Assembly (NCBI RefSeq): GCF_004010195.1
Contig: NC_057754.1
Location: 907,318 to 956,106 of the forward strand
Origin: Chiloscyllium plagiosum
Taxonomy: Eukaryota
Length of the DNA stretch: 48,789 bases
Direction: 5' to 3'
The position numbers and the translations under genes are program-made. This document shows, in pieces, positions 1 to 45,000 of the stretch (positions are counted from its first letter, which is position 1; the number at the start of each line of letters is the position of its first letter). Below the pieces are notes generated by a model. The model was given only the letters and a program-made list of their open reading frames with translations. It was not told where the DNA came from and did not search any database.

Positions 1-59
1 ACTGTGCTAAGGAGGAGTCCATAAATAGATGGCAAGGCACATCTCTGTTTGCCCCTGGA

Positions 60-215
60 GTCATAGAGTCATACAGCATGGAAGCAGACCCTTCAGTCCA
101 GTTCAAGCAGGTTGATCGGATAACCTAAATTAATCTAGTCCCATTTGCCAGCACTTGGTTCATTTCCCTCTAAATCCTTCCTATTCATTTACCCATCTGG
201 ATGCCTTTTAAATAT
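60..215 (-). mobile_element. CR1-type LINE 3' end fragment
   Basis: CATAGAGT tail repeats and same 3' sequence as the copies at 13920, 15137 and 43323. Confidence 0.8.
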
Positions 216-544
216 TCTCCTGCAATTAAAACCCCACCCAGCTTTTTGTTTAAAGAGATGGCTGTCGGGTACCTATGAAACTGTATTTGCCAATGGTGCG
301 CCCATCCCCACAACATTAGTGAGCAGTCCATCAATACCCCAGTCGATAGGCTGACAAACCCACCAGCAATGGACTTCATGGGTAGGAACATTCTGCACAA
401 ATGCATAAGTGTTACCACCATAATTAACACTTCCTATGTTAATACAATGTCCAAATGTGTTACGAGCTAGGTCAATCTGCTATTGTAATGATGTTATAGG
501 ATAAATATTACTACCAAGAAATCGGGGAGAACTCATTTTCAAAT

Positions 545-890
545 TTGGCATCGAGCTCATCCAGCTCAAAGGGCAGATGGGACGTTGGCTCAACTGAAGG
601 ACACTCACTCCAAAGTGCATTATTCCCTCCATATTGACCCTCCTGACAATGCAGCACTATCTCAGGCATGAGCCCATCCCCCAGATGGTATGGTACACTC
701 TCATCCCTGACCACAACTGACAATGCATGCTCCCTGAGGTGTCATCCTATGACTGTGTGGCATTACATGCATTCTGACCCTCCGACAGTGCCTGCTTCCT
801 CAGCACTGACCCACTGATGGTGTGGCGCTCCCTCGGCGCTGACAGTGCAGCATTCCATCAGTGCTGACCCTCCAACAGTGCGGCATAACT
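545..890 (-). repeat. Deu-SINE-like fragment followed by degenerate ~35-bp minisatellite
   Basis: Recurring ctgaccctccgacagtgcagcactccctcagtg-like units; same unit at 18930-19345. Confidence 0.6.
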
Positions 891-924
891 TTGTGCTGCC
901 AATAAGGATATCAGGTTAGATCAT

Positions 925-1130
925 GTGTACGTGTATGGAATGAGCTGCCAGAGGAAGTGGTGGAGGCTGGTACAATTGCAACATTTAAGAGGCATTTGTA
1001 TGGGTATATGAATAAGAAGGGTTTGGAGGGATATGTGCCGGATGCTGTCAGGTGGGACTAGATTGGGTTGGGATATCTGGTTGGACTGAAGGGTCTGTTT
1101 CCATGCTGTACATCTCTATGATTCTATGAC
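925..1130 (+). mobile_element. CR1-type LINE 3' end (~205 bp)
   Basis: Encodes VWNELPEEVVEAGTIATFKRHL; ends in ctctatg-type tail. Confidence 0.85.
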
Positions 1131-2019
1131 ACTGTCTCTAGACTGAGTCTGGAACCAATGACTTTCAGAATCAGATGTGAAAATGCCCACTAAAAGAATC
1201 GCAGCTGATATCTCAGACGGTTAGGTTGATCTCCCAGTGTCCTGACCAGATTCATCTCATGATAGCTCAATGCTATGTCAACCAGTTACTGTTTCAATGT
1301 TGACGTGCAATTACTGCCAATATCATTTCATGTATCATACTCAGTAGCCAATACACAGCCTGACCTCCCCTTTACCTATGCTGCTGCACCATTCCCAAGA
1401 GATACTCGCTTATTTGTGGTGAGAAAGGGAAGTATTCTCTGCACGAGAAATTGCAGGGGTACAGGAGTGGTTTGGGGGAGTGTAGGGGCTGGCCAGCAGG
1501 AGTTAGGTGACATACAGCAACAGATCTAACTTAAGCATTAAGCTTGACATTGCAGCAAGGTAATTGAGGGGTGGGTATGTCATTGCAACTCTCCCATGTC
1601 ACAAAGGGTACTGAAAATCTGGAAGGTTTGTGGGTCAGTTGAACCTTGTAGAATTGTGATTGGAAGATTTCCGTTTTGGAGGGATATAAATGTTTATGAA
1701 ACCAAGGGAGGCTAAGTGGATTGAAAGGGCAGATCAGCTCTGACCTAACAAAGTAGAACAGGCTCAAAGGGCTGAATGATCAACTCCAATTTCTCAATGT
1801 TTCCATAGCCAGAATAACTGAATTCACTTCATTAACAATGAAATTCTATTTTCACATTTTTAAAACCCAGCAATGTTTCTTCTGCAGTTCTACATGAACT
1901 GTGTAATGTGGCCAAGATTTTATCCAATTTTTGTTTTGAAAGTGTGTAGCTGTGTGGAGAGACATGGACTCACGTAAAATAAAACTGTGGGGTTTGAATG
2001 TCTGTTTATGACTGTGTAC

Positions 2020-2720
2020 AAAACCCTCAGCTTCGGCTGTACTGTGTGTTTTCCCTTAACTTTCAAAAAAACCCAATGAAACTGCAGGTGGTGATGGTGG
2101 TGGGGGGGGAGGTTAACACGCTGTCACAGACTGGTGTACCAATGGTGTGTTTTTTTAAAGCATGCGTCTCACAGTACAGGAAGCTTGAGGTTGTGATGTG
2201 TGAACCCTTAACTGGTCTACATGGAGTACGCAGCAGTTTGTGTGTGGGCTGTCTATGGCCTGAGGCCCATGCTGGGAATCACACTTTGTAGCATTAATCT
2301 TCGGCTTATTCAGGGTTAATATAATAAAGGGCTTTTTATATTTACTCACATGTACACACGCACACACATTTAAGTGGGGAAGGGATGGGTGGGGTTAAGG
2401 CGCAAATTATAAGGGGTTTCAGGACCTCACAAGCAGGGGCTGTGCCTGACTTTGTGTGGCTGCTCTGTCAGCTACAGGAGCTTAAGGGGTTAAAGACACA
2501 TTTGTTGAGAGGTTCCGCCCAAATTAAAACAGGGTTTCCTGATTGAGGTCAGCAGGGGCCTTTGTTGTTGTAATGTCCGTTTTTATTTTAATCCCCTTCC
2601 TTGATGTGAATGTGCCTGACATGTTTGCACCAGTGAGTTTTCAGACGACAGGGTGGGGTGGGTAGAGAGCACAGTCAAATCGAACATTAACCTCTCCCCA
2701 TATGCATAAAATGGGAGGGG
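2020..2720 (+). other. Candidate structured intronic RNA domain (tandem long hairpins)
   Basis: Multiple nested inverted complements read by eye (see findings); no recognisable repeat family. Confidence 0.55.
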
Positions 2721-3044
2721 AAAAAAAAACTTCTCTGAGCAGGAGCCAATTTCTATGACAGTCGGGTTTCGTTCCTGTCCCAGTTGATCTCCATTTCTCC
2801 GCCCCCACCATTTTGCTTCTCCTTGGACCTGGCCTTTTGTGTTGCAGTCTTGGGGGAGGGAACTCATTCCTGATATCACCCAGAACACACGACTTTTTCC
2901 TGTGTCATAGTGTTCAGGAGTTGGAAGCCCTAACTAATTTCTCCTCTGACCATGCCTCTCCAACCCTCTCAAAGGCAAGGGAGACGGAGGTCAATTATTC
3001 TGCATCTCACCAATGTGTTTTTTTATTATGTTAAAAAGAACCCG

Positions 3045-3195
3045 AAGATTGAAGATGCTGGAAATCAGAAACAAAAACAGAAATTGCTGGAAAAACTTGT
3101 TCTGAGAAAAGGTCACTGGACCTGAAACATCCACTTTCCACAAATGCTGTCAGACCTGTTGAGTTTTTCCAGCAATTTCACGTTTTTGTTGCTAT
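3045..3195. mobile_element. Penelope-derived fragment with inverted arms around a degenerate hammerhead core
   Basis: Perfect 18-bp inverted repeat 3080-3097 / 3162-3179; AGGTC-actg-GACCT-GAAAC between the arms. Confidence 0.65.
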
Positions 3196-3734
3196 TTCTT
3201 TCTGCCTTTTATAAGATATATACGGAGATATATCTTTCATAAAATGTGGGCATCGGTGTAGGTCAATGTCCTTAATTGCCTTCAGGATTGACAGCTGCCT
3301 CTACCTTGAACTGTTGGAGTCTGTGGTGTAATTGAGTGCCTCGCTGGACTGTTCTAGAGGGCACTAAATGGTCAACCATGTTTCTGTGGATCTGGAGTAA
3401 CATCTGGGTGTAAAAGACCTTTGTGAACCAGATGTGTGTTTACAAAAGTCTGGTAGTTTCATGGCCACCATTTCTGACTCTAGCTCTTTAATTCCAGATT
3501 GATTTTAATTAACTCAATATTCATCCTAGCTGCTGTGGTGGGATCGGAGTCATGTCTTTAGATTCTTAGTCTACCAACATAAACCACCGTACTGAACTAC
3601 CCACCAGGATTGGTGCTCTGAAGCAACTCTTTCACTGCTGTTATATGTGAAATAAATTCCAGTGGGGAGGGAGCAGTACAGTTCAGTTGCACTGGATGTT
3701 ACGGAGGAAACCATACTGTCTACTGTAGGGATGC

Positions 3735-3806
3735 TGGAGCAAGGGACATTGTGGGATGTTTTTCCTGCAGTGGAGCAAGGGACATTGTGGGATGTTTTTC
3801 CTGCAG
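3735..3806. repeat. Perfect 36-bp tandem duplication
   Basis: tggagcaagggacattgtgggatgtttttcctgcag occurs twice (3735-3770, 3771-3806). Confidence 0.95.
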
Positions 3807-3899
3807 TCTTGTGAGGTTCCTATTTCTGTTTCAAATGAAACATGCTAATATTTGAAATAAACCAGTGCAAAGATATTTCTTTCATTTCTTTGTTGCCTT

Positions 3900-4260
3900 T
3901 CACCATCTTGGGCATCCCAAAGCTCTTCGAAGCATGATGAACTTCTTGAAAGGTTGTAAGACTGTAGGACATGCAGAAGTCAAGTTATGCAATACAAGCT
4001 CCCATAAGTAGGAAGGAGGTCATGACAAGATGACCTGTTTTTAATTAAATTGTTTAAGGGATTAATAGTGGCTGCGGGGTCATTTATATCTAATCAAGAA
4101 GACATTCAGGGATGTGGTTTGGCACCTCACGTGAAAAGTGAACCCTCCGACAAACCAATACTCCCTCAGTATTGGTGCTTGGAGTGCTAATCTATAGAGG
4201 GAGTTGGACTTGAACCCACAAATTCTGACTGAATGGAGAGAGGACTATTCATTAAGACAG
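3900..4260 (-). mobile_element. Degenerate Deu-SINE-like element
   Basis: B-box-like ggacttgaaccc and ccctccgaca...ctccctcagta core; family assignment from memory. Confidence 0.5.
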
Positions 4261-4689
4261 GATCATTCCAGCAGTGCTTGGGAAATTAAATCTGGGATTT
4301 TTCTGTAGATAGTCTTGTACCACACCATACTACACTGCATTCCACACAAATCACTGAATCTCACAATGTTACATTCAGGTAAGTTGTAGAAATGCCCCAG
4401 GACTTTCATGGACCAACATCTGTGATCTAGCCATGTATTACACTCCAGCTTAAATATTCCTGTTTCCTGTCTAATTCTGCATGGAATTAAATCTAAAAAT
4501 GAGTTGTTTTAAAAACTGATCACTGTACCTAAAACAACAAAATATGTTAAACGTGCAAGCATGGACTTTTTGTATTTATGTACCAAGAAGGAGAAAATGA
4601 TTCATAATTTTTTTAATTAAAAAAATACATAGTTATCTGTTAAACTGAACAGTCTATGGCTTTAGCCCATGGGGCAAAGGGAATTTAAA

Positions 4690-5020
4690 ATTATGAACCA
4701 TGTTGATAGGGTAGATGTAACGAAGATGTGTCCATTTGTAAAGGAAACCAAAATGAGTTGGTCATTAATACAAGACAGTCACTGTTAAATCCAATGCGGA
4801 ATTTGGGAGAATTTTTTTTACTCTGAGAATGTGGAACTATCTACCATAGGCAGAGATGAATAGTGTTGGTGCAGTTAAGGAAAATCTGATAAACATAAGG
4901 GAGGGAAGGAGTTGAAAGGTGTGTTGCTAGGGTGGGATGAAGTTGAGTGGGGTGGCTTGGGTGGAGCATGAGCACCAGCACGGTGAAGATGGGCTGAATG
5001 GCTCTCATTCTTGTTCCTCT
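4690..5020 (+). mobile_element. Old CR1 3' fragment abutting the exon acceptor
   Basis: Degraded RT C-terminal sequence and terminal gggctgaatggc motif. Confidence 0.6.
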
Positions 5021-5032
5021 TTCTCTCATTAG

Positions 5033-5150
5033 GAGAGTTTGAAGAAGACTCGAAGCAGCCAGCTCTGGTGGATCAGGAACGGCACCAACTTAAACACAGA
5101 GAGCTCTTCCTGTCACGCCAGTTTGAGTCCCTCCCTGCCACACACATCAG
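5033..5150 (+). CDS. mta2: MTA2 coding exon (BAH region): [38 protein letters not shown]
   Basis: Pyrimidine tract + AG at 5031-5032, GTAATC donor at 5151; translation matches MTA2 as recalled ([24 protein letters not shown]). Confidence 0.95.
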
Positions 5151-18929: not shown

Positions 18930-19345
18930 TGATCCTTCAATGATGCAGTCCTGACTGCACAGCAATTCTCAGTGTAGAGCCTCTGACAGTGCAGCACTCT
19001 GTCAGTAATGACCTTCCAACAGCACTGTGCTTCCTTAATCCTGACCCTCAAACGTGGTGCTTCCTTATGACAGACCCTCAGATGGTGCAATACTCCCTCC
19101 GTACTGACCCTCCAACAGTGTGACATTCCTTTATTGCTGACCTTCTGACAGTGCAGTGCTTTCTCAACACTGAACCTCCGAAAGTGCGTTGTTTCCGAGT
19201 TCTGACTCTGTGACAGTCCCTCAACACTGACCCTCAGACAATGCAGTGCTCCCTCAGTGCTGACCCTCTGACAGTATGGTGCTCCCTCAAAACTGACCAT
19301 GTAACTGCACGTTGCTTCCACGACCCTGAACCCCTGACAGCAGTA
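18930..19345. repeat. Degenerate ~35-bp minisatellite
   Basis: About 11-12 units of ctgaccctc..acagtgcagtgctccctcagtg. Confidence 0.8.
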
Positions 19346-20914
19346 CTGGTTATAAGCATTGGCCTACCGTTGAACCACAGTTGATATATATGATAATATA
19401 GTCCCACATTTATTGGTGTTTTCATTAAAGGTGAAAACATTGGATTGCCAGATACTTGTCAAGTTCTGATCAAGCTGTGGCATCTCAACCTAAAATTGTA
19501 AATGATACCAGTACAGCAGGGGTACATAGAATTGTCCATGTAGTCCCGCTGCATGCTGTTTCATAATCCCTTGTCATTTATCTCCTTTTTAAAAAACATT
19601 ATAGAATACTCCTCCCTGATTATTTCTGTCCAATAATTCTCTGCCCTAGCAAAATCCAAACAGGCTTTTCTGCTTACTTGGTCGATGTAGCTGATTATGC
19701 TGCACCTGAATTTCCTGTTCTCCTATTAGCACATTGCTCTATTCCTTTCAACTTGAGACCCTCTTTAAAGTCAAACACACAGCCTGGACATGGTGTTCTC
19801 ACTGCAGCCTCAAGAATGGTTTCTACAGATTTATCACACTCTCAGTCTGTACTTCCATTTTGAAGATTCGTCCAGCTGAACCACTCCCTGCTCCTTCATT
19901 CTTCAGGTTGTACCATTTAATAACTCTTCTGTCAAATTTTTATTCTTCCTTCCATAAGGAAATATTTCAAATTAATGTGTATCACTTTTGTTCAACTATT
20001 TTATGTGTCTCAGATCTCTTCAAGTCCTAACTGTTAATCACATAGTGTATTTCTGTGTCATCTACAAATTTGACCACCTCCCAGAACTATTTATTTCTGT
20101 AAATATTCTAGAGAGCAATGATTTCACTCCGATTTCTCAAATCTGAAAAACAGCCATTAAGTTGAAAATAGATCACTGTTCCTTCAGTGTTGTTGGGTCC
20201 AAAACCTGAAATTCCCTCCCTAACATTGTGGATGTCCCAACACCACGTGAACAGCAATGGTTCAAGATGTTAGCTCAAAACCACTTTTAAGAGTAACTAG
20301 GGATGGCCAATAAATGTTAGCCTAACAAGTGATGCCCACATCTCAAGAGTGAAGAAAGAAAAATTATCTTTCCTTGGATTCTTTCCATTTAGCTTGCTGA
20401 CATGGCCACTCTTCCCCCTTTCAGCATCAAACCCATTCACTCAACATTCTTGTGCTCCCAGTTGACATCTCATCTTTAAGTCCTGTCCTTCTGTTCTTCA
20501 TTTCAGTAACCGCCTCCAACTTTACAATCCTCAGAGATTTCAGTGTTTGTTAAACTCTGGCCTCTTGCACGTGACTGATTTCTGTCACTTTACTGTTGGT
20601 ACCTGTGCATTGAGCTGCCAGGACACTAAACTTCTTCAATTCATCTGAGCCCCTCCCCCTCTCTTACTTTGAAGATGCACCTTAAAACTTATCTCTTGGG
20701 CCAAACATGTGGTTGCCTGGCAGGTATTTTGTGGTTTTATTTTGGTCTGAGTACCCACATGTGAAGCAGCCTGGGGTGTTTGACTGCTTTAAAACATTAT
20801 ATAGCTTCAAGCTGTTGTCCTGTCTTTCTATCTGAATAGAAATCCTCATTTCTTATTTCTTCCTCATTGACCCTAACTTCCTCCCAATAATCTATTTATT
20901 TTCTTGCTTTGCAG

Positions 20915-23075: not shown

Positions 23076-23292
23076 GAGCCCAGATCTAAGGGGTCGTATG
23101 GCCGCCAGGATCCTCAGGGTTTGCTGTCATATAACAGCTCCAAACTCCTGGCCAAGAACCGGCAGACATTCCTCCTCCAGACAACCAAGTTGACCCGTGT
23201 TGCTCGGCGACTCTGCGATGATATCCTCCGGCCGAGGAGGGCAGCAAGACGGCCCTATATCCCTGTCAACATCGGAGCCATCAAGACTGAAT
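23076..23292 (+). CDS. mta2: MTA2 exon: EPRSKG...LLAKNRQTFLLQTTKLTRVARRLCDDILRPRRAARRPYIPVNIGAIKTE
   Basis: tttgcAG acceptor, GTAAGG donor; RRAARRP RBBP4-binding motif. Confidence 0.95.
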
Positions 23293-24342
23293 GTAAGGAG
23301 GCCCTGTCAGTCAAGGACTGGGCAAGTCTTTAAACAAAACATGCTTCTTCACTCTCCCCAATGTGTTGCTTATTGATTACAGCCATGTTGAACAAAGCTC
23401 TGCTTTCTGAAGACAAGCGAAAGAGTGAAGGGATGCCAATCCAGTAATAAGATTTCAACCGAATAGAGGTAGACAAGATGTTTCTGTTGACTGGAAAACC
23501 AGAATTAGGAGCCATCAATATCAGTTACTAATAAATCCATTTGTGCGATCAGGAACAATGTCCTTTACCCAGGCAGTTTTTGTCTATCAGGCGTGAAAAA
23601 TACTTCACATCGCATGCATGCTTACATGATCAGTTAGTGCTATTGCACAATAGTTAAGCGCAAAGTGCACCAAATGGGGATGAAGTTTTACATAACTAAA
23701 TATTTTGTAAGGTCTCAATTCACTGAACAGCTTTGTGTGTAGGTTTAATGTTTGAGGTAGTTGTGAGGTTAACTTTTCTATAGCATTTTGACAAATGGAA
23801 CAAAGTGAAAGATGTGCATGCTACTTAACCTTATCAACTCTTAATGGATATCTTATTAACGAGGAAACATGCTTAATGAAGATATCTGTTTAAAGAAATC
23901 TTTATTCCTGTATGTTCCATGATTAAACCCCCGTGTCAGAGAACTTGCTTACACTACTGATGCTGGAGCTTCAATTAAATAATTAAGAATTTGAATCTCA
24001 AGCTCTCAGGAAAGAATTGGGATACTGGAGTGACAACTTTGCTTCAGAGTTTATGGTACTGGAGGAATAACAACAGGGCGTAGCCAATCAAAACCTGGAG
24101 GTTGATCTGTCTTTCAGTTTAATCATGGCTGATCACAACTCCATTTAGCAGCTTTGGTTGCATAACTATTAGATGCCTAACAAACATATCTATTGGCTGT
24201 AGAAGCTGTGGGTTGTCTTTACCTGCTCACTGACTGACTGACCTGTCCTCCCTCTCGTTTCTCCCCACACAGCAACCCCCAGCGTAGACACACATACACA
24301 TCCCTGCTGTGAGATTTGAAGCTGGTTCTGTTTTCCCCTTAG

Positions 24343-24441
24343 GTGCTGTCAGACTTCCAAAAGCAGCAATAAAACCACTCAGGATCCGGCCTGTGGCACG
24401 GCCTACGTTAGCTAATATCATGAAGGAGTTGGGCGAATTGG
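24343..24441 (+). CDS. mta2: MTA2 exon: (C)AVRLPKAAIKPLRIRPVARPTLANIMKELGEL
   Basis: ttttccccttAG acceptor, GTAAGT donor, 99 nt, phase 1-1; resembles MTA2 CSIRLPKAAKTPLKI. Confidence 0.9.
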
Positions 24442-25222
24442 GTAAGTCACATTTAAGTAATTGAGCTGAGGGGTTAACAATTCCCTCAAGCTTTTTTGTT
24501 TTGATTTTCCCATCTAATTCTAGAACAGTGCCCTTCGGTGACCTCCTCACCTTGGGTATGTGCTGTTTGTGAGCGCGATCCTTGGTGTTTGGTCACATTG
24601 TTGGAGGCCTAAGTTTTCCAGTGCACTGCAGAAAATGCTGCATTATCAGGATGTTATCTATAATGTTTTGATACGTTTTTAACTCCAGTCATTTTATGTA
24701 AGTGTTTTGGGGAGAAAGAGAAAATTGAGATTTTTGATGACTTTCCAAACTGGAAAAATGTCGCTTGGGTTAGGAAAAGTTCCTAAGCAGTCAATCTGGA
24801 AAGTGCTGCTGAACAGACGGTAGAAACAGATTAACTACTTTTCAAAGAGTGAATTGAATAAATATTCAAAGTGGAAAAATGTACAGGGTTACACGGAAGT
24901 GCTAGAAGGAGTGGGCCAAATTTGACAGATTGTTGAAAGAGCCAGCACAGTCTCAGTGGACCAAGTAAGCTTCTGCGCTGCATCATTCAAAATCTTTGAC
25001 TAAACTGAGCTAGTTCCTGTGTGGAAGTGAATGCCCAAGATCCTTATTGTTTTGCACTGTTTCTCCATTGTCTTCCCAATGTCCTGTCCCAACATTCCTA
25101 CCTGAACAAACAATCTCACAGTGTTGTAAAGGTTATGTGACTGTGGATGTGTGCACTGTAATGAGTTGGATGTATGGATAAATGCAGGCTTTATTTTCAC
25201 GCCGAGTATGTTTAAATTGCAG

Positions 25223-29679: not shown

Positions 29680-32623
29680 GTGGTGGTGTCACTGGGCTAG
29701 TAAACTACAGGCAATGTGGTGTCTTCTCTGGGGTAGTAATCCACAGTTGGTGTGACGGTGTTGTCACTGGGCTACTAATCTACAGATGGTGAGAGGTTGT
29801 CACTGGGCTAGTAATCTACAGATGGTGTGGCGGTGTTGTCACTGGGCTAGTAATCTACAGATGGTGTGGCGGTGTTGTCACTGGGCTAGTAATCTACAGA
29901 CGGTGTGGCGGTGTTGTCACTGGGCTAGTAATCTACAGACGGTGTGGCGGTGTTGTCACTGGGCTAGTAATCTACAGACGGTGTGGCGGTGTTGTCACTG
30001 GGCTAGTAATCTACAGACGGTGTGGCGGTGTTGTCACTGGGCTAGTAATCTACAGACGGTGTGGCGGTGTTGTCACTGGGCTAGTAATCTACAGACGGTG
30101 TGGCGGTGTTGTCACTGGGCTAGTAATCTACAGACGGTGTGGCGGTGTTGTCACTGGGCTAGTAATCTACAGACGGTGTGGCGGTGTTGTCACTGGGCTA
30201 GTAATCTACAGACGGTGTGGCGGTGTTGTCACTGGGCTAGTAATCTACAGACGGTGTGGCGGTGTTGTCACTGGGCTAGTAATCTACAGACGGTGTGGCG
30301 GTGTTGTCACTGGGCTAGTAATCTACAGACGGTGTGGCGGTGTTGTCACTGGGCTAGTAATCTACAGACGGTGTGGCGGTGTTGTCACTGGGCTAGTAAT
30401 CTACAGACGGTGTGGCGGTGTTGTCACTGGGCTAGTAATCTACAGACGGTGTGGCGGTGTTGTCACTGGGCTAGTAATCTACAGACGGTGTGGCGGTGTT
30501 GTCACTGGGCTAGTAATCTACAGACGGTGTGGCGGTGTTGTCACTGGGCTAGTAATCTACAGACGGTGTGGCGGTGTTGTCACTGGGCTAGTAATCTACA
30601 GACGGTGTGGCGGTGTTGTCACTGGGCTAGTAATCTACAGACGGTGTGGCGGTGTTGTCACTGGGCTAGTAATCTACAGACGGTGTGGCGGTGTTGTCAC
30701 TGGGCTAGTAATCTACAGACGGTGTGGCGGTGTTGTCACTGGGCTAGTAATCTACAGACGGTGTGGCGGTGTTGTCACTGGGCTAGTAATCTACAGACGG
30801 TGTGGCGGTGTTGTCACTGGGCTAGTAATCTACAGACGGTGTGGCGGTGTTGTCACTGGGCTAGTAATCTACAGACGGTGTGGCGGTGTTGTCACTGGGC
30901 TAGTAATCTACAGACGGTGTGGCGGTGTTGTCACTGGGCTAGTAATCTACAGACGGTGTGGCGGTGTTGTCACTGGGCTAGTAATCTACAGACGGTGTGG
31001 CGGTGTTGTCACTGGGCTAGTAATCTACAGACGGTGTGGCGGTGTTGTCACTGGGCTAGTAATCTACAGACGGTGTGGCGGTGTTGTCACTGGGCTAGTA
31101 ATCTACAGACGGTGTGGCGGTGTTGTCACTGGGCTAGTAATCTACAGACGGTGTGGCGGTGTTGTCACTGGGCTAGTAATCTACAGACGGTGTGGCGGTG
31201 TTGTCACTGGGCTAGTAATCTACAGACGGTGTGGCGGTGTTGTCACTGGGCTAGTAATCTACAGACGGTGTGGCGGTGTTGTCACTGGGCTAGTAATCTT
31301 GTGGTGTTGTGTCACTGGGCTAGTAATCTACAGATGGTGTAGTGTGTGTCACTGGGCTAGTAATCTACAGATAGTGTGGTGTTGTGTCACTGGGCTAGTA
31401 ATCTACAGATGGTGTTGTGTCACTGGGCTAGTAATCTACAGATGGTGTGTTGTTACTGGGCTAGTAATCTACAGATGGTGTGGTGTTGTGTCACTGGGCT
31501 AGTAATTTACAGATGGTGTGGTGTTGTCACTGGGCTAGTAACCTACAGACGATGTGGTGTGTTTCACTGGGCTAGTAATCTACAGACGATGTGGTGTTGT
31601 GTCACTGGGCTAGTAATCTACAGATGGTGTGTTGTTACTGGGCTAGTAATCTACAGATGGTGTGTTGTCACTGGGCTAGTAATCTACAAAAGATGTGGTG
31701 ATGTGTCACTGGGCTAGTAATCTACAGACGATGTGGTGTTGTCACTGGGCAAGTAATCTACAGACGATGTGGTGTGTCACTGAGCTAGTAATCTACAGAC
31801 GATGTGGTGTTGTCACTGGGCAAGTAATCTACAGACGATGTGGTGTTGTCACTGGGCTAGTAATCTACAGATGATGTGGTGTTGTGTCACTGGGCTAGTA
31901 ATCTACAGACGATGTGGTGTTGTGTCACTGGGCTAGTAATCTACAGACGATGAGGTGTTGTATCACTGGGCTAGTAATCTATAGACGATGTGTGTTGTTA
32001 CTGGGCTAGTAATCTACAGACGATGAGGTGTTGTATCACTGGGCTAGTAATCTATAGATGATGTGTGTTGTTACTGGGCTAGTGATCTACAGACGATGTG
32101 GTGTGTTGTTACTGGGCTAGTAATCTATAGACGATGTGTGTTGTTACTGGGCTAGTGATCTACAGACGATGTGGTGTTGTGTCACTGGGCTAGTAATCTA
32201 CAGATGATGTGTTGTTACTGGGCTAGTAATCTACAAAAGATGGTGTGTTGTCACTGGGCTAGTAATCTACAAAAGATGGTGTGTTGTCACTGGGCTAGTA
32301 ATCTACAAAAGATGTGTTGTCACTGGGCTAGTAATCTACAGACGATGTGGTGTTGTGTCACTGGGCTAGTAATCTACAGACGATGTGGTGTTGTTACTGG
32401 GCTAGTAATCTACAGACGATGTGGTGTGTCACTGGGCTAGTAATCTACAGACGATGAGGTGTTGTGTCACTGGGCTAGTAATCTACAGATGTTGTGGTGT
32501 GTGTCACTGGGCTAGTAATCTACAGATGGTGTGGCGGTGTTGTCACTGGGCTAGTAATCTGCAGACTGTGTGATGTTGTCACTGGGCTAGTAATCTGCAG
32601 ACGGTGTGGCGGTGTTGTCACTG
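29680..32623. repeat. 39-bp tandem satellite (gtcactgggctagtaatctacagacggtgtggcggtgtt), left part
   Basis: Homogeneous core of ~36 identical units (~29880-31299), then diverged units. Confidence 0.98.
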
Positions 32624-34580
32624 ACAATAGACAATAGGTGCAGGAGTAGGCCTTTCTGCCCTTCGAGCCTGCACCACCATTCAATATGATCATGGCTATC
32701 ATTCCTAATCAGTATCCTGTTCCTGCCTTATCTCCGTTACCCTTGATTCCACTATCCTTGAGAGCTCTATCCAACTCTTTCTTAAATGAATCCAGAGACT
32801 GGGCCTCCACTGCCCTCTGGGGCAGGACATTCCACACAGCCACCACTCTCTGGGTGAAGAAGTTTCTCCTCATCTCTGTCCTAAATGGTCTACCCCGTAT
32901 TTTTAAGCTGTGTCCTCTGGTTCGGTACTCACCCATCAGTGGAAATATGTTTCCTGCTGCCAGAGTGTCCAATCCTTTCATAATCTTATACGTCTCAATC
33001 AGATCCCCTCTCAATCTTCGAAACTCAAGGGTGTACAAGCCCAGTCGCTTCAGTCTTTCAGTGTAAGGGAATCCCACCATTTCAGGAATTGACCTTGTGA
33101 ACCTACGCTGCACTCCCTCAATAGGCAGAATGTCTTTCCTCAAATTTGGAGACCAGAACTGCACACAGTACTCCAGGTGTGGTCTCACCAGGGTCCTGTA
33201 CAGCTGCAGAAGCACCTCTTTGCTTCTATACGCAATCCCTCTTGTTATGAATGCCAGCATGCTACTAGCCTTCTTCACTACCTGCATGCTTATCTTCATT
33301 GACTAATGTACACTTTCCTTATTCCTGAAGAAGGGCTTATGCCCGAAACGTCGATTCTCCTGTTCCTTGGATGCTGCCTGACCTGCTGCGTTTTTCCAGC
33401 AACACATTTTCAGCTCTGGTGTACAAGAACCCCCAGATCTCTTTGTACTGCCCCTTTACCTAAATTGATTCAATTTAGGTAGTAATCTGTCTTCCTGTTC
33501 TTGCCACCAAAGTGGATAACCATACATTTATCCTCATTAAACTGCATCTGACCACTTACCTAACCTGTCCAGGTCTCCCTGTAATCTCCTAACATCCTCC
33601 TCACATTTCACCCTGCTACCCAGCTTAGTATCATCAGCAAATTTGCTAATTTTATTACTAATACCATCTTCTATATCATTAATATATATTGTAAAAAGCT
33701 GCGGTCCCAGCACTGATCCCTGCGGTACCCCACTGGTCACTGCCTGCCATTCCGAAATGGAGCCGTTTATCACTACGCTTTGTTCCCTGTCAGCCAACCA
33801 ACTTTCAATCCAAGTTAGTTCTTTGCCCCCAATACCAAGCGCCCTAATTTTGCTCATTAACCTCCAATGTGGGACTTTATCAAAAGCTTTCTGAAAGTCC
33901 AGATGCACTACATCTACTGGGTCTCCCTCATCCATCTTCAGAGTTACATCCTCAAAAATTCCAGAAGATAAGTCAAGCATGATTTCCCCTTCATAAATCC
34001 ATGCTGACTCTGACCTATCCTGTTATCCAGATGTGTCGTAATTTCATTCTTTATAATAGACTCCAGCATCTTTCCCACCACTGAGGTCAGACTAACTGGT
34101 CTATAATTTCCTGCTTTCTCTCTCCCACCTTTCTTAAAAAGTGGTACAACATTAGCCACCCTCCAATCCGCAGGAACTGATCCCGAATCTATCGAACTCT
34201 GGAAAATAATCACCAACACATCCATGATTTCTCAAGCCACCTTCTTCAGCACCCTGAGATGTAGACCATCAGGCCCTGGGGACTTATCAACCTTCAAACC
34301 TAACAGTCTCTCCAACACCAATTCCTGGCAAATATAAATTCCCTTAAGTTCAGGTCCTTCAGCCACTGTTACCTCAGGGAGATTGCTTGTGTCTTCCCCA
34401 GTAAACACAGATCTGAAGTACCAATTCAATTCTTCTGCCATTTCTTTGTTCCCTGTAATATATTCCCCTGTTTCTGTCTTCAAGGGCCCAATTTTAGTCT
34501 AAACCATTTTTTTGCCTTTCACATATCTAAAAAAGCTTTTACTATCCTCCTTTATATTTTTGGCCAGTTTACCTTTGTAC
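32624..34580 (-). mobile_element. 5'-truncated CR1 LINE inserted in the satellite
   Basis: KSPGPDGLH, NYRPVSLTS, QHGFMKGKSC, VPQGSVLGP, FADDTK; (ACAATAG)2 tail; CTG on both sides. Confidence 0.95.
33313..33419 (+). mobile_element. Short Penelope-derived insert with hammerhead core, nested in the CR1
   Basis: TGTACA at 33307-33312 and 33420-33425; CTGAAGA-a-GGGC-ttat-GCCC-GAAAC-GTC. Confidence 0.8.
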
Positions 34581-34893
34581 CTGGGCTAGTAATCTACAGA
34601 CGGTGTGATGTCACTGGGCTAGTAATCTACAGACGGTATGGCAGTATTGTCACTGGGCTAGTAATCTACAGACGGTGTGGCAGTATTGTCACTGGGCTAG
34701 TAATCTACAGATGGTGTGGCAGTATTGTCACTGGGCTAGTAATCTACAGACGGTGTGATGTCACTGGGCTAGTAATCTACAGACGGTGTGGCAGTATTGT
34801 CACTGGGCTAGTAATCTACAGACGGTGTGGCGGTGTTGTCACTGGGCTAGTAATCTACAAACGGTGTGGCGGTGTTGTCACTGCGCTAGTAAT
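34581..34893. repeat. 39-bp satellite, right part
   Basis: About 8 further units resuming in register after the CR1. Confidence 0.95.
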
Positions 34894-43322: not shown

Positions 43323-45000
43323 TAGAGTCATAGTCATAGAGATGTACAGCATGGAAACAGACCCTTCAGTTCAACCCGTCCATGTCGACCAGATATCCCA
43401 ACCCAATCTAATCCCACCTGCCAGCACCCGGCCCTTCCTATTCATATACCAATCCAAATGCCTCTTAAATGTTGCAATTGTACCAGCCTACACCACTTCT
43501 TCTGGCAGCTCATTCCATACACCTACCACCCTCTGTGTGAAAACGTTGCCCCTTAGGTCTCTCTTATACTTTCCCATCTCACCCTAAACCTATGCCCTCT
43601 AGTTCTGGACTCCCCGACCCCAGGGAAAAGACTTTGTCTATTTATCCTATCCGTGCCCCTCATAATTTTGTAAATCTCTGTAAGGTCACCCCTCAGCCTC
43701 CGACGCTCCAGGGCAAACAGCCCCAGCCTGTTTAGCCTCTCCCNNNNNNNNNNNNNNNNNNNNNNNNNNNNNNNNNNNNNNNNNNNNNNNNNNNNNNNNN
43801 NNNNNNNNNNNNNNNNNNNNNNNNNNNNNNNNNNNNNNNNNNNNNNNNNNNNNNNNNNNNNNNNNNNNNNNNNNNNNNNNNNNNNNNNNNNNNNNNNNNN
43901 NNNNNNNNNNNNNNNNNNNNNNNNNNNNNNNNNNNNNNNNNNNNNNNNNNNNNNNNNNNNNNNNNNNNNNNNNNNNNNNNNNNNNNNNNNNNNNNNNNNN
44001 NNNNNNNNNNNNNNNNNNNNNNNNNNNNNNNNNNNNNNNNNNNNNNNNNNNNNNNNNNNNNNNNNNNNNNNNNNNNNNNNNNNNNNNNNNNNNNNNNNNN
44101 NNNNNNNNNNNNNNNNNNNNNNNNNNNNNNNNNNNNNNNNNNNNNNNNNNNNNNNNNNNNNNNNNNNNNNNNNNNNNNNNNNNNNNNNNNNNNNNNNNNN
44201 NNNNNNNNNNNNNNNNNNNNNNNNNNNNNNNNNNNNNNNNNNNNNNNNNNNNNNNNNNNNNNNNNNNNNNNNNNNNNNNNNNNNNNNNNNNNNNNNNNNN
44301 NNNNNNNNNNNNNNNNNNNNNNNNNNNNNNNNNNNNNNNNNNNNNNNNNNNNNNNNNNNNNNNNNNNNNNNNNNNNNNNNNNNNNNNNNNNNNNNNNNNN
44401 NNNNNNNNNNNNNNNNNNNNNNNNNNNNNNNNNNNNNNNNNNNNNNNNNNNNNNNNNNNNNNNNNNNNNNNNNNNNNNNNNNNNNNNNNNNNNNNNNNNN
44501 NNNNNNNNNNNNNNNNNNNNNNNNNNNNNNNNNNNNNNNNNNNNNNNNNNNNNNNNNNNNNNNNNNNNNNNNNNNNNNNNNNNNNNNNNNNNNNNNNNNN
44601 NNNNNNNNNNNTACAGTCTATATCTTTCATATCCTTTTCCACAGTAAATACTGATGCAAAACACACATTTAGTATCTCCCCCATTTTCTGTGGCTCCACA
44701 CAAAGGCCGCCTTGCTGATCTTTGAGGGGCCCTATTCTCTCCCTAGTTACCCTTTTGTCCTTAATATATTTGTAAAAACCTTTTGGATTCTCCTTAATTC
44801 TATTTGCCAAAGCTATCTCATGTCCCCTTTTTGCCCTCTTGATTTCCCTCTTAAGTATACTCCTACTTTCTTTGTACTCTTCTAAGGATTCACTCGATCT
44901 GTACTGTCTATACCTTACATATGCTTCCTTTTTCTTAACCAAACCCTTAATTTCATTTGTCATCCAGCATTCCCTATACCTACCAGCCTTTCCTTTCACC
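43323..45000 (-). mobile_element. CR1 LINE spanning an assembly gap
   Basis: 3' tail at 43323; KENPKGFYKYIKDKRVTRERIGPLKDQ ORF2 segment beyond the gap. Confidence 0.88.
43744..44611. other. Assembly gap (868 N)
   Basis: Run of N. Confidence 1.

Follow-up and report, generated by a model that had tools for sequence, protein, structure and literature searches.

Conserved poly(A) sites in introns attenuate transcription regulators, as set out in the available part of Kamieniarz-Gdula et al. (2019, PMC6458999). Such regulators are known to be dosed through transcripts cleaved prematurely in an early intron. In the examples given there, intron 1 of PCF11 (PAS1) and CSTF3, an AATAAA lies in an early intron of a gene for a regulator of gene expression, as it does in mta2, a chromatin gene, of the carpet shark Chiloscyllium plagiosum. 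The likeness extends to the short isoform, which in mta2 would have a C-terminal extension. There are also differences: i) use of the site and its conservation from fish to human are shown for PCF11 and CSTF3, whereas the mta2 site is a candidate from its sequence; ii) the signals there are in tandem, whereas mta2 has one, a second AATAAA (2323-2328, in the loop of an AT-rich hairpin) being broken by A2323G in a close relative, organism B; and iii) the available text describes no gating hairpin, and MTA2 is missing from its lists, among them five supplementary files on PCF11-attenuated genes, which hold no shark data. A TTTGAA..TGT motif, which also stands behind PCF11 PAS1 in the figure text, was tried and set aside (3 found, 3.18 expected).

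Two further systems bear on the downstream side of the site. In LRP5 and FXR1, G-quadruplexes act as downstream auxiliary elements, according to the accessible text of Beaudoin and Perreault (2013, PMC3675481). In these genes and in TP53, as in mta2, a G tract lies behind an AAUAAA and a GU-rich element. The 3' UTR or the sequence behind the gene houses those tracts, which have been tested, whereas the mta2 tract is intronic and its quadruplex predicted; unlike them, it is at best two-tier, follows the hexamer at a distance of about 120 nt and would tip a 54-bp rod. The poly(A) site of HIV-1 is inhibited by a hairpin (as summarised in the part of PMC3647115 at hand). In both HIV-1 and mta2 an RNA fold covers a 3'-processing element, in mta2 by prediction, but in HIV-1 the poly(A) site itself is in the hairpin, whereas in mta2 the hairpin leaves the hexamer free and pairs a downstream GU-rich tract with an arm that lies 120 nt from it. 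The same portion of PMC3647115 gives an AAUAAA with UGUA upstream and GU-rich and G-rich elements downstream as the standard poly(A) element set; by an ad hoc score all of these (GU/U-rich in place of GU-rich) are found in the mta2 intron. By analogy, the mta2 element would work like a PCF11/CSTF3-type intronic site with a G-rich auxiliary element. The MTA2 literature on intron elements and polyadenylation, in the parts consulted, holds no account of an element in intron 3; genome-wide supplementary tables, such as poly(A) atlases and screens for conserved structures, may list MTA2. Related work consulted for comparison describes, in its available text, no RNA fold gating such an intronic site.

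The hairpin at 2022-2192 is tentatively read here as part of a poly(A) unit in mta2 intron 3, of which it would make up the downstream half and in which its fold may gate premature cleavage. This reading is preferred because three signals, each weak when taken separately, coincide on 300 nt: a poly(A) context, the best non-repeat rod and a substitution-poor block. The poly(A)-signal context just upstream of the hairpin, absent from the earlier note on this DNA, gives the most concrete mechanism.

Host intron and elements of the locus

The window, the whole 48,789-nt stretch that was analysed, carries the shark mta2 gene on its + strand. A 73-aa exon at 23076-23294 matches Chiloscyllium punctatum MTA2 with 100% identity, and the C. 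punctatum MTA2 protein maps to 15 stretches of the window, from 5032 to 48590. An MTA gene had been suspected from the letters alone; it is, specifically, MTA2. Exons 1-3 were not found within the window, so that positions 1-5032 make up the distal stretch of intron 3; 2.8 kb of this intron separate the hairpin from exon 4, which is downstream. Repeats occupy the flanking intron at 58-216 and 750-1133 and as an inverted pair at 3061-3198; the segment 1850-2750 has no second copy within the window. The inverted pair forms the window's strongest non-tandem inverted repeat (3024-3222; arms 3061-3097 and 3162-3198, 89%), which is repeat-like and has a further look-alike at 33371. A 39-nt minisatellite (78 copies at 29682-32623 and 34581-34893) is interrupted at about 32650-34500 by a LINE-like insert, and its internal palindrome gives the strongest folds of the window. 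An assembly gap at about 43745-44610 (868 N in the window) lies inside the last mta2 intron. Two in-frame cassette exons, each specific to one lineage, follow exon 3 and precede exon 4 in shark MTA2 records, within the BAH domain; they differ, with about 27 aa in carpet sharks and 17 aa in lamniform sharks (records P0002, P0189, P0191, P0193; P0183, P0186, P0194); neither maps to 1-5030 of the window.

The elements of the locus, as read from sequence and computation, are:

1885..1887, + strand: candidate 3' splice site (pyrimidine tract and CAG) of a short terminal exon, from sequence
1888..1949, + strand: candidate coding part of the terminal exon, 19 codons and the stop TAG (1947-1949), in the phase of intron 3, from translation
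1902..1948, + strand: two UGUA motifs of CFIm type (1902-1905 and 1945-1948), from sequence
1978..1983, + strand: AATAAA poly(A)-signal hexamer, from a motif scan
1985..2017, + strand: proximal GU/U-rich stretch around the expected cleavage zone, from sequence
1990..2275, no strand assigned: substitution-poor block that takes in the hairpin plus the next 85 nt; CCCTTAAC occurs in it at 2053 and 2205
2025..2046, + strand: 5' arm of the 20-bp outer stem (CCTCA, GCTTC, a 2-nt bulge, CTGTACTGTG), from sequence and folding
2060..2075, + strand: 5' arm of the middle helix (CTTT-C-A7-C-CCA), conditional, with p of about 0 at standard energies and 0.48-0.78 with the G-quadruplex option
2091..2101, + strand: 5' arm of the apical helix (GTGATGGTG, 3 G-U), conditional, from sequence and folding
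2102..2112, + strand: G8AGG tract, loop of the rod, candidate two-tier G-quadruplex or G-rich auxiliary downstream element
2116..2127, + strand: 3' arm of the apical helix, from sequence and folding
2143..2160, + strand: 3' arm of the middle helix, with a variable TG/T run, from sequence and comparison with organisms B and C
2170..2190, + strand: 3' arm of the 20-bp outer stem, from sequence, folding and organisms B and C
5033..5150, + strand: mta2 exon 4 (EFEEDSKQ...PATHIR), which closes the host intron, from protein mapping, the gene being identified by the match at 23076-23294

In a sequence check, every arm claimed for the hairpin was present. Exact reverse complements are formed by 2037-2046 with 2170-2179, 2030-2034 with 2180-2184, and 2025-2029 with 2186-2190; 2060-2072 is complementary to 2149-2160 with one bulged C, and 2091-2099 to 2119-2127 with 3 G-U pairs. 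The G8 run is at 2102-2109 and GGTTAAC at 2111, as had been described. The end of the 5' arm of the outer stem is at the same time the start of a GU/U-rich tract, 2037-2053. The G8AGG tract has a G4Hunter-type score of 2.04, fifth of the 23 + strand sites at or above 1.4, and is two-tier at best, as the sequence has no four GGG tracts. Another G-rich tract with quadruplex potential (score 2.16) is at 2376-2400.

Of the 25 AATAAA on the + strand, the hexamer at 1978 has the highest GU content downstream, on an ad hoc score devised post hoc, and it alone combines two upstream UGUA motifs with a G-rich far element. The outer stem begins 42 nt behind it, and GU-rich and G-rich downstream elements are inside the hairpin. 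The 2037-2053 tract is 54-70 nt behind the hexamer, at or past the usual distance, and the nearer GU tract, 1985-2017, is outside the stem. The substitution-poor block starts directly behind the hexamer. Organism C, the one close relative covering the hexamer, has no listed change in it; an insertion of 24 nt, behind the stop codon, sets the hexamer of organism C further from the UGUA motifs.

Chance, constraint and alternative readings

The alternative that survives best is that of a chance fold-back in ordinary intron DNA, the best among several to be met in any 49 kb, beside one of 25 cryptic AATAAA, which is rather unlikely when taken singly. As a fold, the whole hairpin has a z of -1.41 (21 of 200 shuffles equal) and, with tuned ends, of -2.14 (5/200), a value reached by 6 of 184 untuned 171-nt windows of the same 48,789-nt stretch. 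The minus strand folds equally well (z -1.75). Local complementarity is strong under matched nulls (3/1000, 1/500 and 0/2000 shuffles). With the hairpin's geometry fixed the score is 37-38 against maxima of 23-25 in three shuffled windows, under a null tuned to the hairpin. When the geometry is left free, four scorings find an equal fold-back in 9, 28, 49 and 60 of 60 shuffled 49-kb windows, and a fifth finds 1.15 per shuffled window. In two gapped Watson-Crick scorings, solely repeat-derived fold-backs equal or exceed the hairpin across the window. Its duplex of -30.2 kcal/mol ranks sixth in the window. Chance has against it that a single 300-nt stretch, free of the window's repeats, combines three things: the poly(A) context that ranks first, the top Watson-Crick rod outside repeats and the block poor in substitutions. 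The hairpin is thus real as sequence and the window's best non-repeat Watson-Crick fold-back, but it is not clearly beyond chance in a 49-kb search. The earlier note had called it the least chance-like element of its domain; this holds relative to its neighbours but not window-wide, where shuffles give equals.

Non-tandem fold-backs at 19327-19526 and 24438-24608 match or outscore the hairpin in some tests, and the latter starts where an mta2 exon ends. A direct look-alike, 2035-2061 versus 2189-2213, was rejected as chance-like (262 of 2000 shuffles equal).

Twenty sequencing runs from three organisms contain part of 1850-2750, and 4 of 24 listed runs were compared. Organism C covers 1450-2071 and 2115-2799 and organism B 2150-2960, both at about 97-98% identity; the G tract and the apical 5' arm fall outside this coverage. 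Listed substitutions number 41 of 47 differences in the three main contigs, changes near contig ends being hidden. On this count, the block 1990-2275 has 1 substitution in 369 base-lineages against 40 in 1749 elsewhere (Fisher p 0.004 with post hoc bounds, scan p 0.047). The hairpin alone, with 1 in 171, is not significantly conserved (Fisher p 0.14; 171-nt scan p 0.17), which fits the chance reading. The outer arms show 0 listed substitutions in 60 base-lineages of organisms B and C, a count of little power (1.4 expected, P(0) 0.25). Covariation was not seen within the hairpin in these two close relatives, again with low power. Organism C is without one C of 2024-2026, so that, by eye, the basal bulge is gone and AACCTCA faces TGAGGTT. 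The sole changes inside the rod are in the middle helix of organism C, where G2145C and a 5-nt insertion after 2150 are uncompensated and weaken it; the organism B contig fits from 2150 onward.

The constraint reaches 85 nt past the hairpin (0/166), as would be expected of a constrained DNA element, an intronic enhancer or silencer of clustered TTAA-core motifs beside which the fold-back is incidental. This reading is unlikely. It is favoured by nine GGTTAA/CCTTAA-type matches on either strand in the 700 nt from 2054 (2054-2692), the densest cluster of the window, the next having five. AGGGTTAA, moreover, resembles the ZNF652 site. Against it, two of the downstream TTAA-type motifs are broken in relatives (the one at 2397 in C, the one at 2687 in B), chance alone would give two CCCTTAAC per window, and there is no CpG enrichment. 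The odds of chance or of a DNA-level element are about those of the gated poly(A) unit. The CCCTTAAC motifs look like the U12 branch-site consensus; a U12 intron was rejected within the reach of the window, which has no RTATCCT donor upstream and would hold two CCCTTAAC by chance. Ends of piggyBac or Kolobok elements were rejected as well, the TTAA-flanked motifs being oriented the wrong way.

Partition-function folds gave a divided answer on the helices proposed in the earlier note. The three outer helices are predicted with mean pair probabilities of 0.83-1.0 in all 7 contexts, of 171 to 1261 nt, but the middle and apical helices have p 0.00 in 7/7. At standard energies the full rod is about 1e-4 of the ensemble, at -55.9 versus -59.8 kcal/mol, 3.9 above the minimum, because the G tract prefers pairing with CCCTTAAC. 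The rod becomes the minimum-energy structure under the ViennaRNA G-quadruplex option, with DNA parameters, or when 2102-2112 is forced to be unpaired. It then has 54 pairs, 51 of them Watson-Crick, and is unbranched. The full rod is thus conditional, in these models, on the G tract being unavailable for pairing, through a quadruplex or a protein. A quadruplex bonus of about 4-6 kcal/mol would suffice; that of 22 kcal/mol used by the option is probably too large for two tiers. A z of -6.4 obtained with quadruplex folding was set aside as circular, since shuffling destroys the G run. A long predicted fold at 2348-2624 adjoins the hairpin, with helices at p 0.8-0.96 and the top non-repeat score if G-U is neutral. 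Counted by hand, the 10 substitutions in its helices in organisms B and C comprise 7 that break pairs, 3 that change to G-U and none that is compensatory; the fold looks unconserved because pairs are broken without compensation.

If the rod forms, it could be a functional RNA with a G-quadruplex apex and a job other than in cleavage: it might affect whether intron 3 is spliced or retained, cause pausing, or bind ADAR, Staufen or MTA/NuRD itself. This too is improbable, to the same degree as the DNA element. The unbranched 54-bp structure with the G tract unpaired argues for it (with the G block fixed, 0 and 1 of 500 matched shuffles equal it), as do the lineage-specific cassette exons in intron 3 of shark MTA2 records and the rank of the hairpin in a window-wide scan with the centre unpaired, ninth of 5947 windows and fourth of 30 retested loci. 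The same scan speaks against it, in that 12 of the 30 loci reach z <= -3.5, and so do the inner part alone, equalled by 14 of 500 shuffles, the probably excessive quadruplex bonus, and a raw RNA run (single-cell, poly(A)) in which none of three placed reads crosses the rod.

The hairpin might also go back to an inverted duplication that arose locally long ago, by template switch or as a fold-back element, and that is now worn and neutral. Over their full length the 80-nt arms can be aligned as Watson-Crick complements (score 38, 0/2000 shuffles), and 51 of 54 pairs are Watson-Crick with both strands folding alike, as expected from DNA symmetry. This origin is very doubtful, as the block is substitution-poor rather than decaying and no further copy was seen in the assembled contigs of two relatives (at >= 85% identity) or in the window. 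Depth over 1960-2316 equals one orthologous contig in the two relatives (>= 85% identity), while repeats at 1755-1790 pile up; the arms are therefore no dispersed repeat at that identity. The possibility, raised in the earlier note, that they are inverted copies of such a repeat thus falls away, as judged from the window and two relatives' assembled contigs rather than a whole genome.

A microRNA or other small-RNA precursor, at which the earlier note had hinted, is highly improbable: the stem is long, intronic and on the sense strand, as in pre-miRNAs and structured RNAs of Rfam, but no Rfam family matches at the gathering score (chance matches only, E >= 1.3, in 1800-2900), and the geometry is unlike that of a Microprocessor substrate, with a longest unbroken helix of 10-11 bp, an 11x7 internal loop beyond the basal 20 bp and arms 120 nt apart, where a microRNA precursor has a nearly continuous stem of about 35 bp and a small loop. 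Telomerase RNA, CTE, and H/ACA or scaRNA were rejected for want of an Rfam match.

Reads, proteins and distant relatives

In a single-cell poly(A) run, the region drew 3 reads among 12,955,460 (about 2% of one run), with no pile-up of ends, no polyadenylated end 10-30 nt behind the hexamer and no joints; this count has no exon baseline and is hence weak as a negative. Two non-repeat reads, placed by bin depths at about 1513-1651 and 1834-1915, may form a single pair on the sense strand that ends before the hexamer. Run X20, presumed RNA, is uninformative: its contigs, at 1559-1869 and 2497-2661, are unspliced and leave the hairpin uncovered. The runs listed in a sequencing-run search over 1850-2750 include no RNA run. 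The terminal-exon peptide is absent from stored MTA proteins, including 59 short N-terminal matches and cluster members, and no truncated isoform turned up among these matches and members. Further downstream, 2555-2640 holds about 76 nt without AG, a long pyrimidine-rich tract that ends in CCAGTGAGT at 2630-2638. This motif fits an acceptor (CAG) and at the same time a strong donor (CCA/GTGAGT), and one presumed-RNA contig runs unspliced across it.

Searches for a distant orthologue of the mta2 intron with the exon-4 pattern gave 0 matches in viral contigs and 0 in genome contigs, and whole-protein searches gave none. Metagenomes gave one exon-4 match, a teleost-like mta2 exon 4 (L001) with about 190 nt of upstream intron, which has no match to the hairpin element. 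A plasmid search gave two chance matches of 28 nt only.

A fold that may time cleavage

In the gated poly(A) unit, the transcript would present, in order, UGUA, UGUA, AATAAA, the GU-rich tract and the G tract. Cleavage behind the hexamer at 1978, if it occurs at all, would draw on CstF binding at 2037-2053, and hnRNP H/F would bind the G tract. Once the 3' arm is made, the outer stem would hide the GU-rich element. The predicted accessibility of the 2037-2053 region is 0.56 when the transcript has reached 2060 and 0.00 when it has reached 2195, and 2037-2046 is predicted to be fully paired once it passes about 2190. The outer stem is not the sole mask of the tract, because accessibility is already 0.15 at 2165 via other pairings. 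Cleavage would thus race the fold-back over about 150 nt of elongation. Commitment to cleavage would have to come before the 3' arm has been transcribed by Pol II, or at a time when the G tract is occupied by a quadruplex or hnRNP H/F; the inner rod is predicted to form while a quadruplex or a protein bound to the G run occupies that tract. The product would be exons 1-3 with or without the 19-codon terminal exon, and full-length MTA2 would be lowered.

In its boldest form, the proposal is of a vertebrate-conserved RNA switch, in which a G-quadruplex-capped 54-bp rod conceals or releases the downstream elements of an intronic poly(A) site and, through premature termination, doses a NuRD core subunit, possibly by feedback; this is quite unlikely. 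If the gated unit is false, the locus holds an ordinary chance hairpin, as most 50-kb windows do. If it is true, it would be a compact, mutable switch for MTA2/NuRD dosage, and the locus would test whether the timing of cleavage, while elongation goes on, can be set by a fold-back downstream.
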